IMG/VR virus record: IMGVR_UViG_3300034103_001442
Span: 1 to 64,000 of that record
Source of the DNA: a virus
Length of the DNA: 64,000 nt
Reading direction: 5' to 3' (one strand)
Shown here: positions 1,963 to 48,524 of the stretch, in pieces
Layout: each line of letters starts with the position of its first letter
How positions within the stretch are numbered: position 1 is the stretch's first letter
Program-made: the position numbers and the translations under genes
Notes under the pieces: generated by a model
Database searches by the model: none
Seen by the model: the letters and a program-made list of their open reading frames with translations, nothing else
Told to the model about the DNA's origin: nothing

Positions 1963-4900
1963 TTATTTATTTAACTTTGATTCTAGTTCTTCAATTTTTT
2001 GTTTGAGGTCGTTGATTATCTTTGTTTGTTCTTTGAATGCTTCAATGAACAATCCAGCGAGGTTGCCATAGTCAACACCAAACCTGTCATTTTCTTTATC
2101 ATGCGTTACGACTTCAGGAATGACTGGTTCAACTTCTTGAGCAATGACACCAATTTTTCGTTTCTTTTCTTCATCATCAATGCGGTTGTAGTAAACACCA
2201 CGCAATGCATTCACTTTATCAAGAGCACTCTCAACTGTGATTACGTTTTCTTTGATGCGTGCATCAGATGCCGCGACAATGTTTGCTGTTGAATAGATTG
2301 AGCCACCGACGTACATATAATATGAGGATGACGTCGTCGCTGTGCCGACGCCCATACAATTATTTCCAACATGATGATACCAATACCAGCGACCATTGGC
2401 TTCACGGTATACACCACCATTGCCACCCGAGTCATACATCATACCGTTTACAGCGCTGTGAGATATATACATACCGCTGTAACTGTTTTTGCTGCCATCT
2501 ATTTGTAATTGGGTATAACTACTCCCGCCATTTGGATAAAGATGCGCTCCGTAGTGATTTGGCCAGTAAATACCATACGAGCCATCCATTTGAATCCAAT
2601 TTTGCGGACGGAAATAACTGCCGCCACCTAAAATCAAAGATCCACAATAGGTGCTACCAATAACATGTAGATTATACGCAGGGTCAGAGGCACTAAAATC
2701 GCCGATGCCGACGTTGTTGGATGGACCAACCACAAGACCTGCTGTTGGTCTTGATATTGATGCTGGCGCTCCGTCGTAACCTGTAGCAAGGAAAATCATC
2801 CCAGCAGCATTTTTTGCCCAAATTCTTAACTCAGCATCACCATCATCATGTTGACGAATACCACACTGCCAAGTTGAGTTCGAACCAAATGTGATCAATC
2901 CTTCATATGACCCAGCGTGGACATTTACTGGACCAGTAAATGTTGCTGTTCCAGACATAGACATGCCACCAGCAAATCCAAATCTTGAATATGTGGTGCC
3001 GTTATTTCTCAAAGCAAGATGATGGTCATAGCCGCTGCCATATTCATATCCAAGACCGTACATATTTGCAAGTGGCCAACTTGCGCCGATCGTCCAAATT
3101 ACTTTTGATGCTGTTCCATCAGTATCATAATCACCCATGATACCTCTATTACCAGTTACACGAACGTAACCCGCACTCACCACTCCAGCACAAGAAACGC
3201 TGCCATTCGTACTAATATTACCAGATGAATCAATTGATGTTACATTTGATCCACCAGAATTTCTAAAGTACCAACCATTTGCTGCTTGAAAATACCAATA
3301 ACTACTGTGATATTGAATTTTACCTGAAAATTCTCCATCCCAAGAGGCACTATCAGAGCGCCAAGAACCAACAGTTCTTAATGAAGTTGTTGATGTTGGA
3401 TCGATATAATAACCTGTGTTATCATAATCATAAAATATACTTGACACTCTACCAATTTGACTATTAGTTTCAGTTGCACTGATTGTACCAAATGATGTTT
3501 CGAAAGAAATCGCCCAATTATCATCCCAATCCGCAGCACCATATCCAGAATATCCACCCTCAAAATCAGTTACAGTTACTTGAGGGTAAGTCCAGGAATC
3601 GCTTGTTTCTCCGATATAAACACAACAGTATGTTCCATCATGACCAAATCTTACCGTAAAATTTCTATTTGATCCTGGGTTTGCGAGAATATATGCAAAA
3701 GTGTTTACCCAGTAACTACCATAATTGTATCCACCGCAATTTACTTCAAACGATTCATTTGTTGTATATTCATAAATTTTAACCGTAAATCGCATCATAG
3801 TGTACGACCAAGAAACAGGCAATCTGATTTTGATCGCACCTGCAACAGAACTGCTTGTGCTTGCGTATGATGCGCCACCTGGGAACATAATTCGTACTGA
3901 ACCAGTGGCATCATTAGTGAAACTTGTTGCGCGAAGATTTGCTAGTACTGAAGTTGATGCAGGATCAACATAATAACTTGTATTAGCAGAGTCATAAAAT
4001 ATTGGCGCTCTCATTTGTACAGTTGACGAAACAATTCCACCTGTTGAAATAGAGAAATTCCAAGAGGATCCGTAACCGACGTTATTAATATCAAGATTAT
4101 TACAATTAATATACCTCAAACCACCAGATTGCCAGTCTCTTGTGCCCCATCCACCAACTGCACCAATGTTACCGCCCATGTATAAGTAATTTGTTGTGGC
4201 TAGGTGAATATTACCATTTACGCCAAGTGATACATCAGTTGGTGTAGTTGTTCCTATTGAAAGAGCGTTTAATATTGATGTTGATCCTGGATCGGCATAA
4301 TATCCAGTGCTGTCGCTATCAATTAATTGCGTAGCGTATAATGCACCAGTTTTATAATTAACTCCATATGCAGCCAAATAATACCAAGAATTCCAAGTAG
4401 TATCGATACCCTTTCTTAATCCAAGAATAGGAACACCACCACCATTAGTTGCAGATGATCCAAATGCTAATTGATAAGATGCATCACCAGTGCTTGATGT
4501 TGCTCCATCCCATGGGTGAAAATGCATAACACCAGAGTAATTGCCACCTGTACCAGTTGTACCCGCATTAGCAAAACTAAATCTTACAGCGCGTGTTTTA
4601 CTGTTTGGATAGTAGACTGCAGCACTCGCATCTCGGTCTGTGTCACTATAAAGTAACCAGTTTGATGCAAAACTTAAATCTCCAGTCATCGTTCCACCAG
4701 AAAGTGGTAGATATGAAGCCAAGTTAGAAGTTGTTGCTAATCCAAGTTGACTAATAACGTGTGCTGGTGTAGATTTACGGCAATAGTTATCCGAACCACT
4801 GTTTGTCCAAAATGCCGCAATTGATGGATTTTCGCTGTTTGAACTCGACTGATTGAAGTGCACGCCAAAGAAATAACGACTAGTAATATCACCACCGCTA

Positions 4901-40552: not shown

Positions 40553-41132
40553 CAGAATCGTAATTCAGGGTGTTCGTGAGGGTAAAATCCCAGCACGCAC
40601 TCAAGATGCACGCAATTGGTTCCGTGACACGGCTCAGAAAATCAGAGCAGTGAATGAGCGCAGCCTGATGAAAAACGAAAAAGATCGTTTGGTCAGTCAG
40701 CCAATCGTCGGTAGCATGTACATGTTCTATTATGACCCAAAGTATGCTGCTGAACTGCCATACTATGACAGATTTCCTCTCGTTTTCCCATACAAAAAGG
40801 TTGAGGGTGGCTTTTATGGGCTCAACCTTCACTATTTACCACTGCAATACCGAGCAAAATTGATGGATGGTTTGTACAGTTTCGCAAACAACACTCGCTA
40901 TGATGAGTCAACAAAACTCAAAATGAGTTATCAACTGCTATCAAATGCAGCCAAACTTCGTTTTTTCGAACCTTGTTTGAAGAGATATTTGATTGACCAT
41001 GTGGGATCTAAATTCATGTATGTTTACCCATCAGAGTGGGATATTGCATTGTTTTTACCAACAGAAAGATTTGCCAAAAAGACCAAGTCACAAGTCTGGG
41101 CAGACTCTAAACGCATGCTGGGAGGCATATAA
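40536..41132 (+). CDS. gp2: DNA end protector protein gp2
   Basis: G.MYMFYYDPK...LPYYDRFPL...GLNLHYLP...C.KRYL..HV...LP.ERF. Probable start is TTG 40536 (LASIFD...) rather than 40422. Confidence 0.9.
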   Translation: MASIFDRIVIQGVREGKIPARTQDARNWFRDTAQKIRAVNERSLMKNEKDRLVSQPIVGSMYMFYYDPKYAAELPYYDRFPLVFPYKKVEGGFYGLNLHYLPLQYRAKLMDGLYSFANNTRYDESTKLKMSYQLLSNAAKLRFFEPCLKRYLIDHVGSKFMYVYPSEWDIALFLPTERFAKKTKSQVWADSKRMLGGI

Positions 41133-42112
41133 TGGCTGAGTCTTTAGAAGAAGCAATTGCAGTTGCCAACCAACAGGCTGGGTTAGATCAAAAAAATAAA
41201 AACACGCTTGGTGGTCCAACCAGTTATGCAGCCACAGAAACATTAAGAAATCGTCCTGCTGCAGAGCAATTAAATGCTGAACAAGAATTGGAAACTGTTA
41301 CTGTTGTTTCCCGCGCAAGACCATTTAACATTAATGAATTTAGATCAGAACTCAACACAAATGGAGTTTTGCGTAGCCACAGTTTTACAATGGTTATGCA
41401 ACCGCCAAAAATGTTTTCTGATAATGAACAATTTTTAACTGTTTTTGGTGATGAAACGTTTAGTGGTCCAATCCAAAATCCAGATTTAAGAAATCTAATA
41501 ATGCGTTGTGAATCTGTCGTTGTTCCTGGTGTAAACTTTTTTACATCTGACAATATTAGACGCTATGGTTATGGTCCAATTGAACGTCGCCCATATTTGC
41601 CACAGTTTAACCCAATCACCGCAACATTTGTTGTTGATAGGGCTGCTGAAGTAATTCGCTTTTTTCACCTGTGGAATAATGGTATCATGAACCATGACGT
41701 TTTTGTGGGGGGATTCAATGGCTCTCCAGACACTGTTTCAAAACCATACTTTTTGCGATATAAAGACGATTATATTAGCCCACAGTTGACGATTTTCGTA
41801 TATGATGAAAAATTTCAACAGTCATTTGTTGTTAAATTGAGAGACGCTTACCCATTGACAACAACAGATATTTCAATGTCGTGGGGTGCAACAGATGATG
41901 TTATTAGATACAGCGTAACATTTATGTACACTGATATGGCAATTGATTTCAAGTCGATAGGAACTGGTGGTGGTAAAATACTCGCATCTGCTGACAGTGG
42001 TCCAGATTTCAAAGCGGGCAAAGGTATTGTTGATAAGATTAAAAACCTTGTCAATGGAAAAATTTATTCAGCCCAAGAAAAGATTACAAATAAGATTTTA
42101 AATTCATTTTAA
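41132..42112 (+). CDS. Tail tube initiator / tube-like protein (gp54-like) with N-terminal extension
   Basis: FNINEFRS...G..R...F...RCESVVVPG...Y.DDY...L..AYP......MSW......SVTF.Y tube-fold motifs. Confidence 0.75.
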   Translation: MAESLEEAIAVANQQAGLDQKNKNTLGGPTSYAATETLRNRPAAEQLNAEQELETVTVVSRARPFNINEFRSELNTNGVLRSHSFTMVMQPPKMFSDNEQFLTVFGDETFSGPIQNPDLRNLIMRCESVVVPGVNFFTSDNIRRYGYGPIERRPYLPQFNPITATFVVDRAAEVIRFFHLWNNGIMNHDVFVGGFNGSPDTVSKPYFLRYKDDYISPQLTIFVYDEKFQQSFVVKLRDAYPLTTTDISMSWGATDDVIRYSVTFMYTDMAIDFKSIGTGGGKILASADSGPDFKAGKGIVDKIKNLVNGKIYSAQEKITNKILNSF

Positions 42113-42130: not shown

Positions 42131-42841
42131 ATGGCTTTACCGAAAATACAATCACCTACATTTGAAGTGATTATACCATCCATTAACAAAACTGTTTTGT
42201 TTAGACCATTTTTAGTCAAAGAAGAAAAAATTCTTTTAATGGCTCAACAAAGCAATGATGATAAAGATATTATCAAGGCTATCAAGCAAGTTGTCAACAA
42301 CTGTTGTTTAGATGATAAATTAGACATCGACAAACTGGCAACATTTGATCTTGAGTATTTGTTTCTGAAACTTCGAGCAAGATCAGTGAACAACGTTGTC
42401 GAAATTTTATACAAAGATGCAGAAGATGAAAAGGAATACAAATTTTCTATAAATTTGGATGATGTTGAAGTTACGATGCCGAAAAAATCTGAAAAAAATA
42501 TTAAGATCAATAAGAAGTCTGGCATCGTTATGAAATACCCGAACTTGAGCATCGTGGACCAAATTAAAGATTTTAAAGATGAAATGGAGTTTTTAAACTT
42601 CTTCATCATTAAATGTATCGATGAAATTTACGATGAAAATGATGTTTACCCTGCATCAGAACAAACAGATGAAGAGTTGCAAGAGTTCATTGACAATTTG
42701 GATGTGAAAACCTTTGACAAAATCAGAGAGTTTATGGAGAATATGCCAAAACTTGAACATGTTATAACTTATACTAACTCTTTAGGAAAAGAGAAAAAAG
42801 TAACGTTGAGTACACTAAATGATTTTTTTACATTGGGCTGA
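42131..42841 (+). CDS. gp26: Baseplate hub assembly chaperone gp26
   Basis: MALPKI..PTFE..IPS......FRPFLVKEEKILLMA...FDLEYLFLKLRARSV...MKYP...MPKL...DFF; ATG after a GAGGAG SD. Confidence 0.93.
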   Translation: MALPKIQSPTFEVIIPSINKTVLFRPFLVKEEKILLMAQQSNDDKDIIKAIKQVVNNCCLDDKLDIDKLATFDLEYLFLKLRARSVNNVVEILYKDAEDEKEYKFSINLDDVEVTMPKKSEKNIKINKKSGIVMKYPNLSIVDQIKDFKDEMEFLNFFIIKCIDEIYDENDVYPASEQTDEELQEFIDNLDVKTFDKIREFMENMPKLEHVITYTNSLGKEKKVTLSTLNDFFTLG

Positions 42842-43008
42842 GTCATACCAGTTTAGCAAATTATTATAACATAATTTTCTCATTGGCTCAGCATCATAAA
42901 TACTCGATAAGTGATATTGAAAATTTGATACCGTTTGAAAGAGACTTGTATGTACAAATGTTAATAGACTTTTTGGAAAAAGAAAAAGAAAAAAGAGAGC
43001 AAAAATAA
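42823..43008 (+). CDS. gp51: Baseplate hub assembly catalyst gp51, probably reached by -1 frameshift from gp26
   Basis: Not in the ORF track. Reads (FFYIG)LSHTSLANYYNIIFSLAQHHKYSISDIENLIPFERDLYVQMLIDFLEKEKEKREQK*, the gp51 signature. The frame opens after TGA 42820-42822 and has no ATG before the conserved region. Confidence 0.85.
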   Translation, partial: FFYIGLSHTSLANYYNIIFSLAQHHKYSISDIENLIPFERDLYVQMLIDFLEKEKEKREQK

Positions 43009-44451
43009 ATGCCATTACCACTAGCAGGAATATTAGGAACCCTCGGAAGAGGAGCAATGTTAGCGAGATCAGTAACGCCAATTGTTTCGGGATTATCACT
43101 CAGCAGATTTGGTATGGGTAGAGTTTTCCCATTTTTGAAAGACACTCTGAAAAAAGGGGCAGAACTGATAAAACGTGGCGGCAAAGGCGTGGCGAAAAGA
43201 ATTCCTACTGCTGCTGCATTATTTCTTGGTCTTAATAAATTTGGCTCCAAATTTGGTGAAGAGGGCGGGGAATTTTTACAACCAGAGCAAAATGGTGGTG
43301 CGCAAAATGGTGGTGCGTTTTCGGAACGTGGTGTACTTGGTGCTGGGGGTGGTGAAGCATTAGGTGCTGCATTACCAAGTTTAAGAAATGCAAACATTCC
43401 ATCGCTGCCAAGTTATAAAAGTGGTAAAGAAGGAGAAACTACAGCCAAACTTCTTTCAATTGCAATTAAATATCTTGCTGGAATTGATGCCACTTTAAAA
43501 AACCAACTTGACGTACAAAGAGCATCATTTACACAAACAAATCAAGCAACAAGAGAAAAAAGTTTAGAGGGTTCCGATATAGAGGGGGGCAGACCTACAT
43601 CATCAATAGTATCAAGGATGAAAAGTGCTGGTGGTGGTATTTTGTCTTTCTTTTCCAGTATGTTAATGAAAACATTACTTTTAACTGCACCATTGATTAT
43701 CAAAAAGATTTCCGACATGGTGGATGGGTTTGATTTTGGTTTTGGTGATGATGAAGAAACCGAACCAAGAGCAACACCTCAAAATGGAATGACAAATCAA
43801 AATGGAATGACAAACGATAGACCATCTACAGGCGTTTTGTCTGTCAGAAACAATAATCCTGGTAATTTGAGATTTGCTAATCAAAGAGGGGCAATAGGAA
43901 AAGACAAAAACGGTTTTGCTATATTCCCAACTCGAGAAGCTGGAATGGAGGCAATGAGGCGTCAAGTCGCAAAGGACACTCAAGAAAGAGGTTTGACATT
44001 AGAAAATTTCATTAAAAAATATGCCCCGCCAAGCGAAAATCCAACTTCTGAATATGTGAAAAACGTTTCAGAAAAAACTGGAATTGCTCCAAATGCAAAA
44101 GTTCCTTCTGATAAAATACCTGATGTTATGAGGGCGATGGTGCTTCAAGAGGGCGGTCAACAGGCAATTCAATATTTTTATAACAATCAAGCCCCTACTT
44201 CTGGACAAATGGTTGCTCAACAAACTTCAGGGTCAGCAGCAAAAATTTCAGAAGCAGCAGTTGATAGAGCCGCCAGAGAAAGCGGAGTGGCAACAACGCC
44301 AACAACACCTGCACCAGTTGTAGTCGCTCAAAACGCACCACCGCCAAGTTCAACGACGGTGACTTCTGGTGGTCCTGGCGACCCAAGCAGTGTAAGTTCT
44401 GATAGAACGTTGATGACTTGGATTCAATACTTTTCACCATTGCAAGCATAA
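43009..44451 (+). CDS. Putative tape measure / hub protein (gp29 position) with NNPGN lysozyme-like domain
   Basis: Follows gp26/gp51. Amphipathic N-terminus; SVRNNNPGNLR...GFAIFPT.E.G...FIKKYAPPSEN.T..Y muramidase-like motif; P/T/S-rich tail. Confidence 0.65.
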   Translation: MPLPLAGILGTLGRGAMLARSVTPIVSGLSLSRFGMGRVFPFLKDTLKKGAELIKRGGKGVAKRIPTAAALFLGLNKFGSKFGEEGGEFLQPEQNGGAQNGGAFSERGVLGAGGGEALGAALPSLRNANIPSLPSYKSGKEGETTAKLLSIAIKYLAGIDATLKNQLDVQRASFTQTNQATREKSLEGSDIEGGRPTSSIVSRMKSAGGGILSFFSSMLMKTLLLTAPLIIKKISDMVDGFDFGFGDDEETEPRATPQNGMTNQNGMTNDRPSTGVLSVRNNNPGNLRFANQRGAIGKDKNGFAIFPTREAGMEAMRRQVAKDTQERGLTLENFIKKYAPPSENPTSEYVKNVSEKTGIAPNAKVPSDKIPDVMRAMVLQEGGQQAIQYFYNNQAPTSGQMVAQQTSGSAAKISEAAVDRAARESGVATTPTTPAPVVVAQNAPPPSSTTVTSGGPGDPSSVSSDRTLMTWIQYFSPLQA

Positions 44452-45479: not shown

Positions 45480-47048
45480 TTACTTCGTCATGATCTCGTC
45501 GCCAACAACCAGAACGTCAAGATCACTTGTATCAAATAGTTTCTTTGCGTCATCCACGTATCCAGCAATAGGTGCGCCATTCACATTGAGTGAAGTGTTT
45601 AGCACCATTGGAATACCAGTTTTGCGTCGGAAACTTTCGATCAAGTCTCGGTAAATTGCATATTGTGGCTGCTCATTCACTGTTTGAATTCGGCAAGTAC
45701 CATCAACGTGCAAAATAGGTTTGAATTGAGTCTTATCAAGAGCATCAATTACATAAAGCATATATGGACTTTCATAGTCGCAGTCAAAATATTGGCTGGT
45801 GTATTCATTCAAAATAGATGCACCAAATGGACGGTATGGTTCACGCTTTTTAACACGCTCATTCAAAATGTCCTTACCGTTTTCAACATTTGGGTTCATC
45901 AAAATAGAACGATTGCCCAACGCTCTTGGTCCAATTTCACCATTGCCTTGGTACCACGCTACTATTTTACCCTGAGCAAGAAATTCCGCGGTCTTTTCTA
46001 TAGTGGATGCTGATGGCGTGCTATCAGGTGCTTGATCACTTTGCCAATATGGGAAGTTGCTATTGTCAAACTTCGGCTGGCAGAAAAGTTTACGCAGGAA
46101 CTCAACACAACCCAAACTCAAACCGTCATCTGGACAGTGAGGTGGGATATGCATATTCTTGAAACGTTTACGTAGCGAGGTGTTCACCACGGTGTTTTGA
46201 GCAGTACCGCCCGAGTATGTAATCACATCATCTGGATTTGCATACAGTGAGAAGTAGTCAGGCATCTTGCGCTCACCAAACACATGCATCCAGTGTGATA
46301 GATTAATCAACTGCTGTCTTTCGTCGGGAACTGGAACCAACATTTGGTTGGCTTGCATTGCAATTTGAATGAACTGATTGAGGTGGCGGTAACGCAGTGG
46401 CTCAACAAACTTCATCAAATGGTTGGTCAAATCATCGGGGACATTGTGGAATGACTTGAGTGCCATCAGTTTGCCAGCAATATCAAGAACAATTCCTTCA
46501 ATGCCGATCTTTTGTCCAACCTGTTCCATGGTGACTGACAGCCCCATGTTTTCGCTACGGTCTACATACTCAACGAGTTGGTCATTCTTAAAAATACCAG
46601 AAATGCGACCATGATCACCCAAACCGTCAAGAACAAAATGGGTTGATACTGTATCAAGATCGACAAGTGGCCAACAACTCAAAGTGTGTGAGTAGTGGTG
46701 GTCAACGCGATAAACTGGGCACTTGAATTGCGACCAAAGTTCATTTTTGCTTTTGTCGATTTCAAAGTAGTTCTCATTGATTTGAACTTCACGATCCAAC
46801 TTATGAAGTCCTGGATCATTTGAAATACAGATGCCATCAAGTTCCTGTAGGTCAATACCAAAAATGTCTTTGGCATGCTGAAGTAACTCTGGAACATCAT
46901 CCTTCTTTTCTACATCGCCACCCTTGATGGATGCGGTGTTGTAGTGCTTCTTTTGGACATTGCGTTCAATTTTGGCATAGCGAACCTTGATGCCGTCTGA
47001 ATATGCAATGTTACAATCATGACCGTTACGAATACCTAAAAATTTCAT
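45480..47048 (-). CDS. Carbamoyltransferase (NodU/CmcH/TobZ family)
   Basis: HD...ER...HHYSH...DGLGD...GKLMAL...GG.AQN...D.GLSLG; C-terminal G.IVAWYQG..EIGPRALGNRSIL...KKREPYRPFG...HVDGTCRIQTV...LNTSLN. Confidence 0.93.
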   Translation of the reverse strand: MKFLGIRNGHDCNIAYSDGIKVRYAKIERNVQKKHYNTASIKGGDVEKKDDVPELLQHAKDIFGIDLQELDGICISNDPGLHKLDREVQINENYFEIDKSKNELWSQFKCPVYRVDHHYSHTLSCWPLVDLDTVSTHFVLDGLGDHGRISGIFKNDQLVEYVDRSENMGLSVTMEQVGQKIGIEGIVLDIAGKLMALKSFHNVPDDLTNHLMKFVEPLRYRHLNQFIQIAMQANQMLVPVPDERQQLINLSHWMHVFGERKMPDYFSLYANPDDVITYSGGTAQNTVVNTSLRKRFKNMHIPPHCPDDGLSLGCVEFLRKLFCQPKFDNSNFPYWQSDQAPDSTPSASTIEKTAEFLAQGKIVAWYQGNGEIGPRALGNRSILMNPNVENGKDILNERVKKREPYRPFGASILNEYTSQYFDCDYESPYMLYVIDALDKTQFKPILHVDGTCRIQTVNEQPQYAIYRDLIESFRRKTGIPMVLNTSLNVNGAPIAGYVDDAKKLFDTSDLDVLVVGDEIMTK

Positions 47049-47894: not shown

Positions 47895-48524
47895 TTACCC
47901 CTTGTAAAATAAATGATTGCCTATTTGTCTGACAAATTGTTTGGTCTTTGACCAACTAGGCTCAACATAGTCTGCATGAAAGAATGTCGCATTACCAATT
48001 ATACCGTAGTCACGTTTTAAAATCAATATGTTCTCAGCAATTTTCACGGATTCTTTCCATGATTGGTTACGTCGGACAATTTTGCCATCCTCGCAAACCC
48101 AAGAAAATTGACAAACACCCTTGACCTTTTGGTGAACAACACCACAAACTGTTCTTGGGTATTGTTTACTTTTGACACGGTTCATAGTCACTTCAGCGAC
48201 TGCGACTTTACCAGCATGCGGTTCGCCGCCAGCCTCAAAGTAAATATTTCTCGCCAAGCACTCAACTTCCTTCAGCACTGTCTTTTTCTTTTCATAAGAC
48301 AGGTTGAGAAATTCGACTTTATGATTCAACACTTCAAGTTCCGAAACAAGAAGTTCATTTGTTTCTTTTTGTGCTTCAAGTTTTTCTTGCATCCTGTCAA
48401 CTATGTTATAGGGTACAAACAGGGTGAAGAAAACTAGAGCAAAGAGTCCACCAAATCTCAAAAACAAATTATGATTTCTATCAAAATAGTTTTCAATACG
48501 ATGTAATGTGTCTACTGCATTCAT
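47895..48524 (-). CDS. Cell wall hydrolase SleB/CwlJ family with N-terminal TM helix and coiled coil
   Basis: CLARNIYFEAGGE...GKVAVA.V..NRV....YP.TVCGVV.Q....CQFSW.C...ATFFHADYV.P.W......IGNHLFY. Confidence 0.92.
   Translation of the reverse strand: MNAVDTLHRIENYFDRNHNLFLRFGGLFALVFFTLFVPYNIVDRMQEKLEAQKETNELLVSELEVLNHKVEFLNLSYEKKKTVLKEVECLARNIYFEAGGEPHAGKVAVAEVTMNRVKSKQYPRTVCGVVHQKVKGVCQFSWVCEDGKIVRRNQSWKESVKIAENILILKRDYGIIGNATFFHADYVEPSWSKTKQFVRQIGNHLFYKG

Follow-up and report, generated by a model that had tools for sequence, protein, structure and literature searches.

The window analysed here is a stretch of 64,000 nucleotides (nt) of viral DNA, positions 1 to 64,000 of the IMG/VR virus record IMGVR_UViG_3300034103_001442. 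The source record is a contig of 151,740 bp (about 87% complete) from a T4-like, uncultured phage. On the plus strand of the window lies a gene of the gp26 family (42131-42841), whose 3' end is overlapped in the -1 frame by an open reading frame (ORF) related to T4 gp51. This one tail-assembly gene very probably yields two proteins, of 236 and 292 residues, by a -1 slip on a TTTTTTT run.

The zero-frame ORF starts at ATG 42131 behind the Shine-Dalgarno motif GAGG, encodes 236 residues (the short, 'G-like' product) and ends with AAT GAT TTT TTT ACA TTG GGC TGA, the stop codon being located at 42839-42841. The heptamer T TTT TTT (42823-42829, plus strand) stands in X XXY YYZ phase relative to the gp26 frame, 16 nt 5' of the stop. 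In the -1 frame, a TGA at 42820-42822 is followed by 61 open codons that begin at 42823 and run up to the TAA at 43006-43008. The extension as it would be translated after the slip (YIGLSHTSLANYY...) comprises 59 codons plus TAA (42829-43008, plus strand), and the ATG of the next gene (43009) abuts this TAA. The computed fusion consists of gp26 residues 1-233 plus 59 residues, i.e. 292 residues in total (the 'GT-like' long product). Its predicted junction reads ...LSTLNDFF-YIGLSHTSLANYY... (LNDFF-YIGLSH), and the junction peptide contains TLSTLNDFFYIGLSHTSLANYY. The gp26 end, the heptamer, the opening of the -1 frame and the abutting ATG had been reported by a first-pass annotation made from the sequence alone, and all were confirmed.

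The gene order around the signal is tube-like gene, gp26-family gene and probable tape measure gene. The gene directly 5' of the gp26-family gene (41132-42112, plus strand) encodes a tail-tube-like, gp54/gp19-like protein, which matched phrog_45 'tail tube' (E-value 4e-24) and weakly PF23849 Phage_TTP_2. Upstream of the gp26-family gene, the plus strand carries gp4, gp2 and this tube-like gene; gp32 and gp59 are located downstream, and gp48, gp53, a gp5-like gene and gp6 of the surrounding T4-type morphogenesis block are on the minus strand. Only one PF12322 gene was found in the 151,740-bp record and no separate full-length gp51 gene, the record being about 87% complete.

Family assignment was done by Pfam and PHROG profile searches. 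The 236-residue protein matched PF12322 T4_baseplate with 193.3 bits (gathering cut-off 24.5), residues 9-233 covering profile positions 2-218 of 219, and phrog_150 'baseplate hub' with an E-value of 4e-61; the Pfam search returned no match to any tail-chaperone family. The 61 codons of the -1 frame matched phrog_634 'baseplate hub assembly catalyst' (E-value 6e-24) and also positions 231-276 of the 282 positions of phrog_150 (E-value 4e-4). Because the -1 frame matches the end of phrog_150, some members of the gp26 family must carry the extension in frame.

Conservation of the slippery site was analyzed in 80 related IMG/VR loci with 43-100% protein identity. TTTTTTT was present at the same place in all 80 loci, as GAT TTT TTT and 10-16 nt before the gp26 stop, and an open -1 frame of 55-74 codons followed from the heptamer in every complete locus. 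A codon alignment of 234 columns was prepared from 55 non-redundant genes less than 85% identical to each other. An invariant third codon base was found in only two of the 234 columns, both of them within the heptamer. Residues 231-233 were encoded by GAT (54/54), TTT (55/55) and TTT (54 genes, with TTC in one); the single TTC changes the Z position of the heptamer, where a change is permitted. As an internal control, 22 further two-codon residues with a conservation of at least 90% were inspected. All of them used the minor codon in 7-32 of the 55 genes, for example Phe78 (TTT 30, TTC 25) and Asp99 (GAT 35, GAC 20). Since the heptamer codons are frozen and the control residues vary, selection acts on the nucleotides and not only on the Asp-Phe-Phe sequence. 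Chance is far from sufficient to account for such a signal.

The comparison was extended to 13 finished genomes of cultured phages: S-CAM9, S-CAM1, P-RSM6, S-T4, Pelagibacter phage HTVC008M, Sinorhizobium phage phiM19, Aeromonas phages Aeh1 and AS-sw, Acidovorax phage ACP17, Stenotrophomonas phage BUCT608, Pseudomonas phage Milchi, Ralstonia phage RSP15 and Agrobacterium phage OLIVR5. This set spans Kyanoviridae, Straboviridae (Aeh1, AS-sw), Emdodecavirus, Busanvirus, Menderavirus, Pootjesviridae and others. T TTT TTT or T TTT TTC (T TTT TTY) was located 7-13 nt before the gp26 stop in all 13 genomes, and each had a -1 extension of 57-69 residues ending in a common ...E..M.P[FWY]E... motif. 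Conservation of the heptamer and of its relation to the -1 frame, proposed as a check in the first-pass annotation, was therefore observed in 80 metagenomic and 13 cultured relatives. Ribosomal slippage was marked at the gp26-type locus in none of the 13 GenBank records, and the small ORF was left out of the annotation in four of them (S-CAM1, Aeh1, AS-sw and ACP17). A frameshift at this site would mean that the locus is mis-annotated in hundreds of GenBank entries for cyanophages, pelagiphages, rhizobiophages and Aeromonas phages, in which the small ORF is shown as truncated and free-standing or is missing.

The extension is conserved as a protein, with a mean column identity of 57% and six invariant residues. 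In 53 relatives, conservation of the -1 frame was found from the heptamer onward (Tyr3 in 50/53, Leu6 in 48/53, His8 in 50/53), and the three zero-frame residues after Phe-Phe were variable. Folded alone, the extension was predicted to be all-helical with low confidence (mean predicted local distance difference test, pLDDT, 68.6).

A candidate stimulatory RNA stem was defined by eye from single-sequence folds and then tested by counting pairs in 53 sequences. A 9-bp stem, GCUGAGUCA/UGGCUCAGC, recurred in these folds 7 nt 3' of the heptamer. Its 5' arm (GCUGAGUCA, 42837-42845, plus strand) pairs with its 3' arm (UGGCUCAGC, 42884-42892, plus strand), and the 7-nt spacer between heptamer and stem occupies 42830-42836 on the plus strand (columns 8-14 of alignment A1). 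The bases of the stem could pair in 87% of cells, compared to 21-36% with the partner slid. Double changes were counted in 21 cells, in contrast to 6.9 +/- 2.0 in shuffled alignments, and 0 of 500 shuffles reached 21. They were distributed over four stem pairs, with covariation at pairs 16-69 (CG/UA/AU) and 20-65 (GC 28, AU 10, GU 9). In the window sequence the segment folded with -15.8 kcal/mol (z -3.4). The stem corresponds to what is looked for at -1 sites, a stable structure 5-9 nt after the heptamer that is kept by compensatory changes.

Three other origins of this arrangement were weighed. In one of them, two proteins are made, the small ORF being translated from its own start (ATT 42832, CTG 42838 or TTG 42883) and the T-run reflecting mere codon bias on Asp-Phe-Phe. 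Cultured relatives are indeed annotated with a free ORF of 44-63 residues named 'baseplate hub assembly catalyst', and in some of them an ATG is located 12-24 nt after the heptamer. However, the annotated starts are scattered over a range of 12-60 nt 3' of the heptamer, where they truncate the conserved N-terminal motif, and the four records mentioned above annotate nothing. In the window, the -1 frame has no ATG before codon 46 (42958) of its 61 codons, and the only earlier canonical start is TTG 42883; a Shine-Dalgarno motif was found before none of the three candidates, whereas the gp26-family gene itself has one. Neither ATG, GTG nor TTG was present in -1 codons 3-12 of 39 of the 53 relatives. 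Inspection of starts and ribosome-binding sites thus bore out the claim of the first-pass annotation that the conserved N-terminus of the gp51 frame has neither ATG nor Shine-Dalgarno motif, and spoke against the independent initiation that it had named as a possible refutation. Codon bias was rejected as the cause of the T-run, as the control Asp and Phe residues use both codons: a bias cannot yield GAT in 54/54 and TTT in 55/55 genes when GAC or TTC is found in 7-25 of 55 genes at the other conserved Asp and Phe positions. In T4, moreover, the homologous segment occurs only fused to a gp26-like body. Separate translation of the small ORF was considered very improbable. Still less credible is an artefact or gene decay, in which an indel in the T-run has broken up one continuous gene, or the extension is a non-functional leftover. 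Homopolymers are error-prone, and one protein from an ENA contig (P0002, 287 residues, a singleton) does have a gp26 body that continues into the extension without a change of frame. This protein lacks eight junction residues (..TLNDFFYV..), which marks it as a deletion variant and not the norm; the fusion was hard-wired there by a natural deletion, or the contig was misassembled. A sequencing indel, also listed beforehand as a possible refutation, was rejected as the cause of the T-run because the same frame relation is found in 80 independent metagenomic contigs and in the 13 finished phage genomes, and decay is at odds with the protein-level conservation of the extension.

Transcriptional slippage would lead to the same 292-residue fusion by ordinary translation, if RNA polymerase added one U at the run of seven T. 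The site is a homopolymer, and conservation of the run is expected under both models. In many distant relatives, however, the run is limited to six T before a C (T TTT TTC), and six T are short for efficient polymerase slippage. The run is also always in X XXY YYZ phase, and the covarying stem at 7-nt spacing fits ribosomal frameshifting but has no role in polymerase stuttering. Slippage during transcription was therefore regarded as improbable, if a little less so than separate translation of the small ORF. That the ribosome is the slipping machine was inferred, as were the slip efficiency and the binding partners of the products.

The structure of the gp26-family protein was predicted with AlphaFold2 (pLDDT 90.2, predicted template modelling score 0.83). 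Model confidence fell only in the last block, residues 231-236 (mean pLDDT 61), so that the slip site lies where the confident part of the model ends. An exhaustive VIA-align search against 48,161 chains gave only four chains with a Z score of at least 5, all of them aligned to residues 1-95: 3FGX (Z 8.3), 3KLU/YqbN (6.9), 2OB9, the HK97 tail assembly chaperone (6.8), and 5IR0 (5.4). These alignments comprised 84-86 residues with root-mean-square deviations of 3.8-4.5. All four structures have been described as tail assembly chaperones (PMC9603447, PMC12987554). The search is supportive, not decisive, for a tail-assembly-chaperone-like fold of the modelled N-terminal domain. Residues 87-230 of the model showed weak matches (Z 3.0-4.0) to C-terminal peptide-binding domains of Hsp40/DnaJ proteins (2q2g, 3agz, 1nlt, 3i38, 6jzb, 3lz8, 7zhs); the C-terminal half could be a substrate-binding module, with scores too weak to rely on. 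Beyond T4-like phages, a Foldseek search against BFVD detected the gp26 fold in Campylobacter phage CP220, Bacillus phages SP-15 and BCD7, Ralstonia phage phiRSL1 and Leptospira phage LE4 (E-values 1e-5 to 1e-11).

The next gene (43009-44451, plus strand) encodes 480 residues and is a probable tape measure gene, mainly from its position and a partial PHROG match. Residues 237-415 matched phrog_2276 'tail length tape measure protein' (E-value 5e-21) as well as transglycosylase or endolysin PHROGs, and the C-terminal domain (about residues 237-421) resembles peptidoglycan hydrolase or transglycosylase modules known from tape measure and injection proteins (phrog_873, phrog_2276, phrog_7182). The search against Pfam gave no match for this protein. 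Its N-terminal half is Gly/Ala-rich and has no database match. The first-pass annotation was right that the ATG of its putative tape measure gene abuts the extension stop; the identity of the gene is carried by the position and the partial match.

In a review of the T4 tail (Leiman et al. 2010, PMC3004832), gp26 and gp51 are listed as 'hub assembly chaperones' whose function is unclear. Gene 26 (208 residues, minus strand) and gene 51 (249 residues, plus strand) of T4 are transcribed divergently. T4 gp51 matched PF12322 over residues 1-201 (E-value 4e-52), phrog_150 over 3-248 and phrog_634 over 147-246, while the match of T4 gp26 ended at phrog_150 position 235. The extension encoded in the window aligned to residues 200-249 of T4 gp51 by BLASTP (E-value 5e-4) and to residues 211-244 by hhalign. 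The ORF had been called gp51 by the first-pass annotation; the homology is real, but it covers only the C-terminal 50 residues of T4 gp51 and not the whole protein. As judged from these alignments, T4 gp51 is a gp26 paralogue with the extension in frame, i.e. the counterpart of the predicted frameshift product. Since T4 gp51 combines a gp26-like body with the extension, the fusion protein is already known as a functional entity. The C-terminus of T4 gp26 (..KEFFELL) has kept Phe-Phe, encoded by the non-slippery GAG TTC TTT GAG. In the T4 lineage, where gp51 is a separate gene, the slippery site is gone (T4 gene 26, 3303-3929 of the fetched T4 locus, minus strand). Full-length gp51 genes were found in 1,380 records, from T-even, RB49-, 44RR- and RB16-type phages; one of them, in Acinetobacter phage Octan, is annotated as 'tape measure protein assembly chaperone'.

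The following sequence of events is proposed. Most ribosomes would stop at TGA 42839 and release the 236-residue protein. A minority would slip on U UUU UUU (42823-42829), the Phe-tRNAs in the P and A sites re-pairing one base back, and the stem beginning 7 nt downstream probably pauses the slipping ribosomes. Continuing in the -1 frame for another 59 codons, these would produce the 292-residue protein with a helical extension homologous to the C-terminus of gp51. The common body of both forms would coat the tape measure protein (43009-44451), by analogy with gpG/gpGT of lambda and E/E+E' of P2, the rare extension would tie the tape measure complex to the hub or tube initiator, and neither form would stay in the virion. 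In T4 and its close relatives, recoding would have been replaced by gene duplication, with gp26 as the short form and gp51 as the long form in one frame. The trans-frame fusion is very probably made. Its function together with the short form as a G/GT-type pair of tape-measure chaperones is favoured to a lesser degree, the chaperone role being deduced. The first-pass annotation had read gp26 as G and gp26-51 as GT, joined by -1 slippage; site conservation, gp51 homology and the fold of the N-terminal domain support it in this.

Several observations weigh against a frameshifted chaperone pair. With RNAalifold alone, no consensus structure was obtained from the 53-sequence alignment. The arms of the stem lie in conserved coding sequence, and the support for the stem may be partly circular, as it was derived from the same sequences that were used to test it. 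In some relatives, among them the cyanophages S-CAM9 and P-RSM6, the -1 frame contains an ATG a short distance behind the stop of gp26, from which a free small peptide could be made. An extra U inserted by RNA polymerase results in an identical protein, so that protein data cannot separate ribosomal from transcriptional slippage. The best Foldseek hit of the gp26 model against the PDB had an E-value of only 0.4, and the Z scores of 5.4-8.3 are in the middling range, in which, according to the tool's own warning, a common arrangement alone may be shared. The product of the next gene had no sequence match to T4 gp29, which belongs to a different PHROG, or to the putative tape measure protein of HTVC008M. 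Finally, the fusion is a product predicted from nucleotide sequences, in the window as well as in the relatives.

Two further genes of the window were annotated. A carbamoyltransferase gene of the NodU/CmcH type (45480-47048, minus strand; PF16861, E-value 9e-56, and PF02543) is located between gp32 and gp59 and was classified as an auxiliary gene. A 209-residue protein (47895-48524, minus strand) has a hydrophobic N-terminal segment and a SleB-type cell wall hydrolase domain (PF07486 Hydrolase_2, E-value 5e-26), and is possibly an endolysin.

The -1 frameshift of tail assembly chaperones is among the most general recoding events in phages. It was described for gpG/gpGT of lambda and as a conserved feature by Levin et al. 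(1993) and Xu et al. (2004), as cited in a 2016 review (PMC5009743), which regards G-T frameshifting as a conserved trait of long-tailed phages 'except T4'. A search of the open-access literature yielded no paper linking gp26 or gp51 to a frameshift. If the interpretation given here is true, T4-like phages follow the general rule, the T4 pair represents the short and the long form of one chaperone, and the locus is a natural example of gene duplication replacing recoding. The chances are slightly better than even that the gp26/gp26-extension pair is the missing G/GT tail chaperone of phages of the T4 type; the same would probably apply to many other myoviruses with the PF12322 fold. T4 would then cease to be an exception to the rule, and gp51, with its 'catalytic' role, would work on the tape measure protein gp29 as a recruiter of the GT type.

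Like lambda G/GT, the locus consists of overlapping ORFs, the second one in the -1 frame and devoid of a start, and the first stop is preceded at a distance of a few codons by an X XXY YYZ heptamer. The pair is located between a tube-like and a probable tape measure gene, and the modelled short product is probably chaperone-like in fold. Unlike lambda G, this short form is about twice the typical G size (236 residues) and has two domains, the match to solved chaperones being confined to residues 1-95; it belongs to PF12322, and the heptamer is U UUU UUU instead of G GGA AAG. In the contractile-tailed phage P2, the tail chaperones E and E+E' are reportedly produced by a frameshift at T TTT TTG, so that the two systems would have in common a contractile tail, a heptamer made of a run of T and, close to the 3' end of a small tail gene that precedes the tape measure gene, a -1 extension. 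In contrast to these similarities, P2 E has no detectable sequence relation to the gp26-family gene. With T4 the family PF12322 is shared, T4 gp26 corresponding to the short and T4 gp51 to the long product predicted here. T4 has two divergent paralogous genes without a slippery site, whereas the phage studied here has one gene and needs recoding for the long form. Its gp51-type features, a gp26-like body and a homologous extension, are encoded in different frames and would become a single polypeptide only if the frameshift happens.

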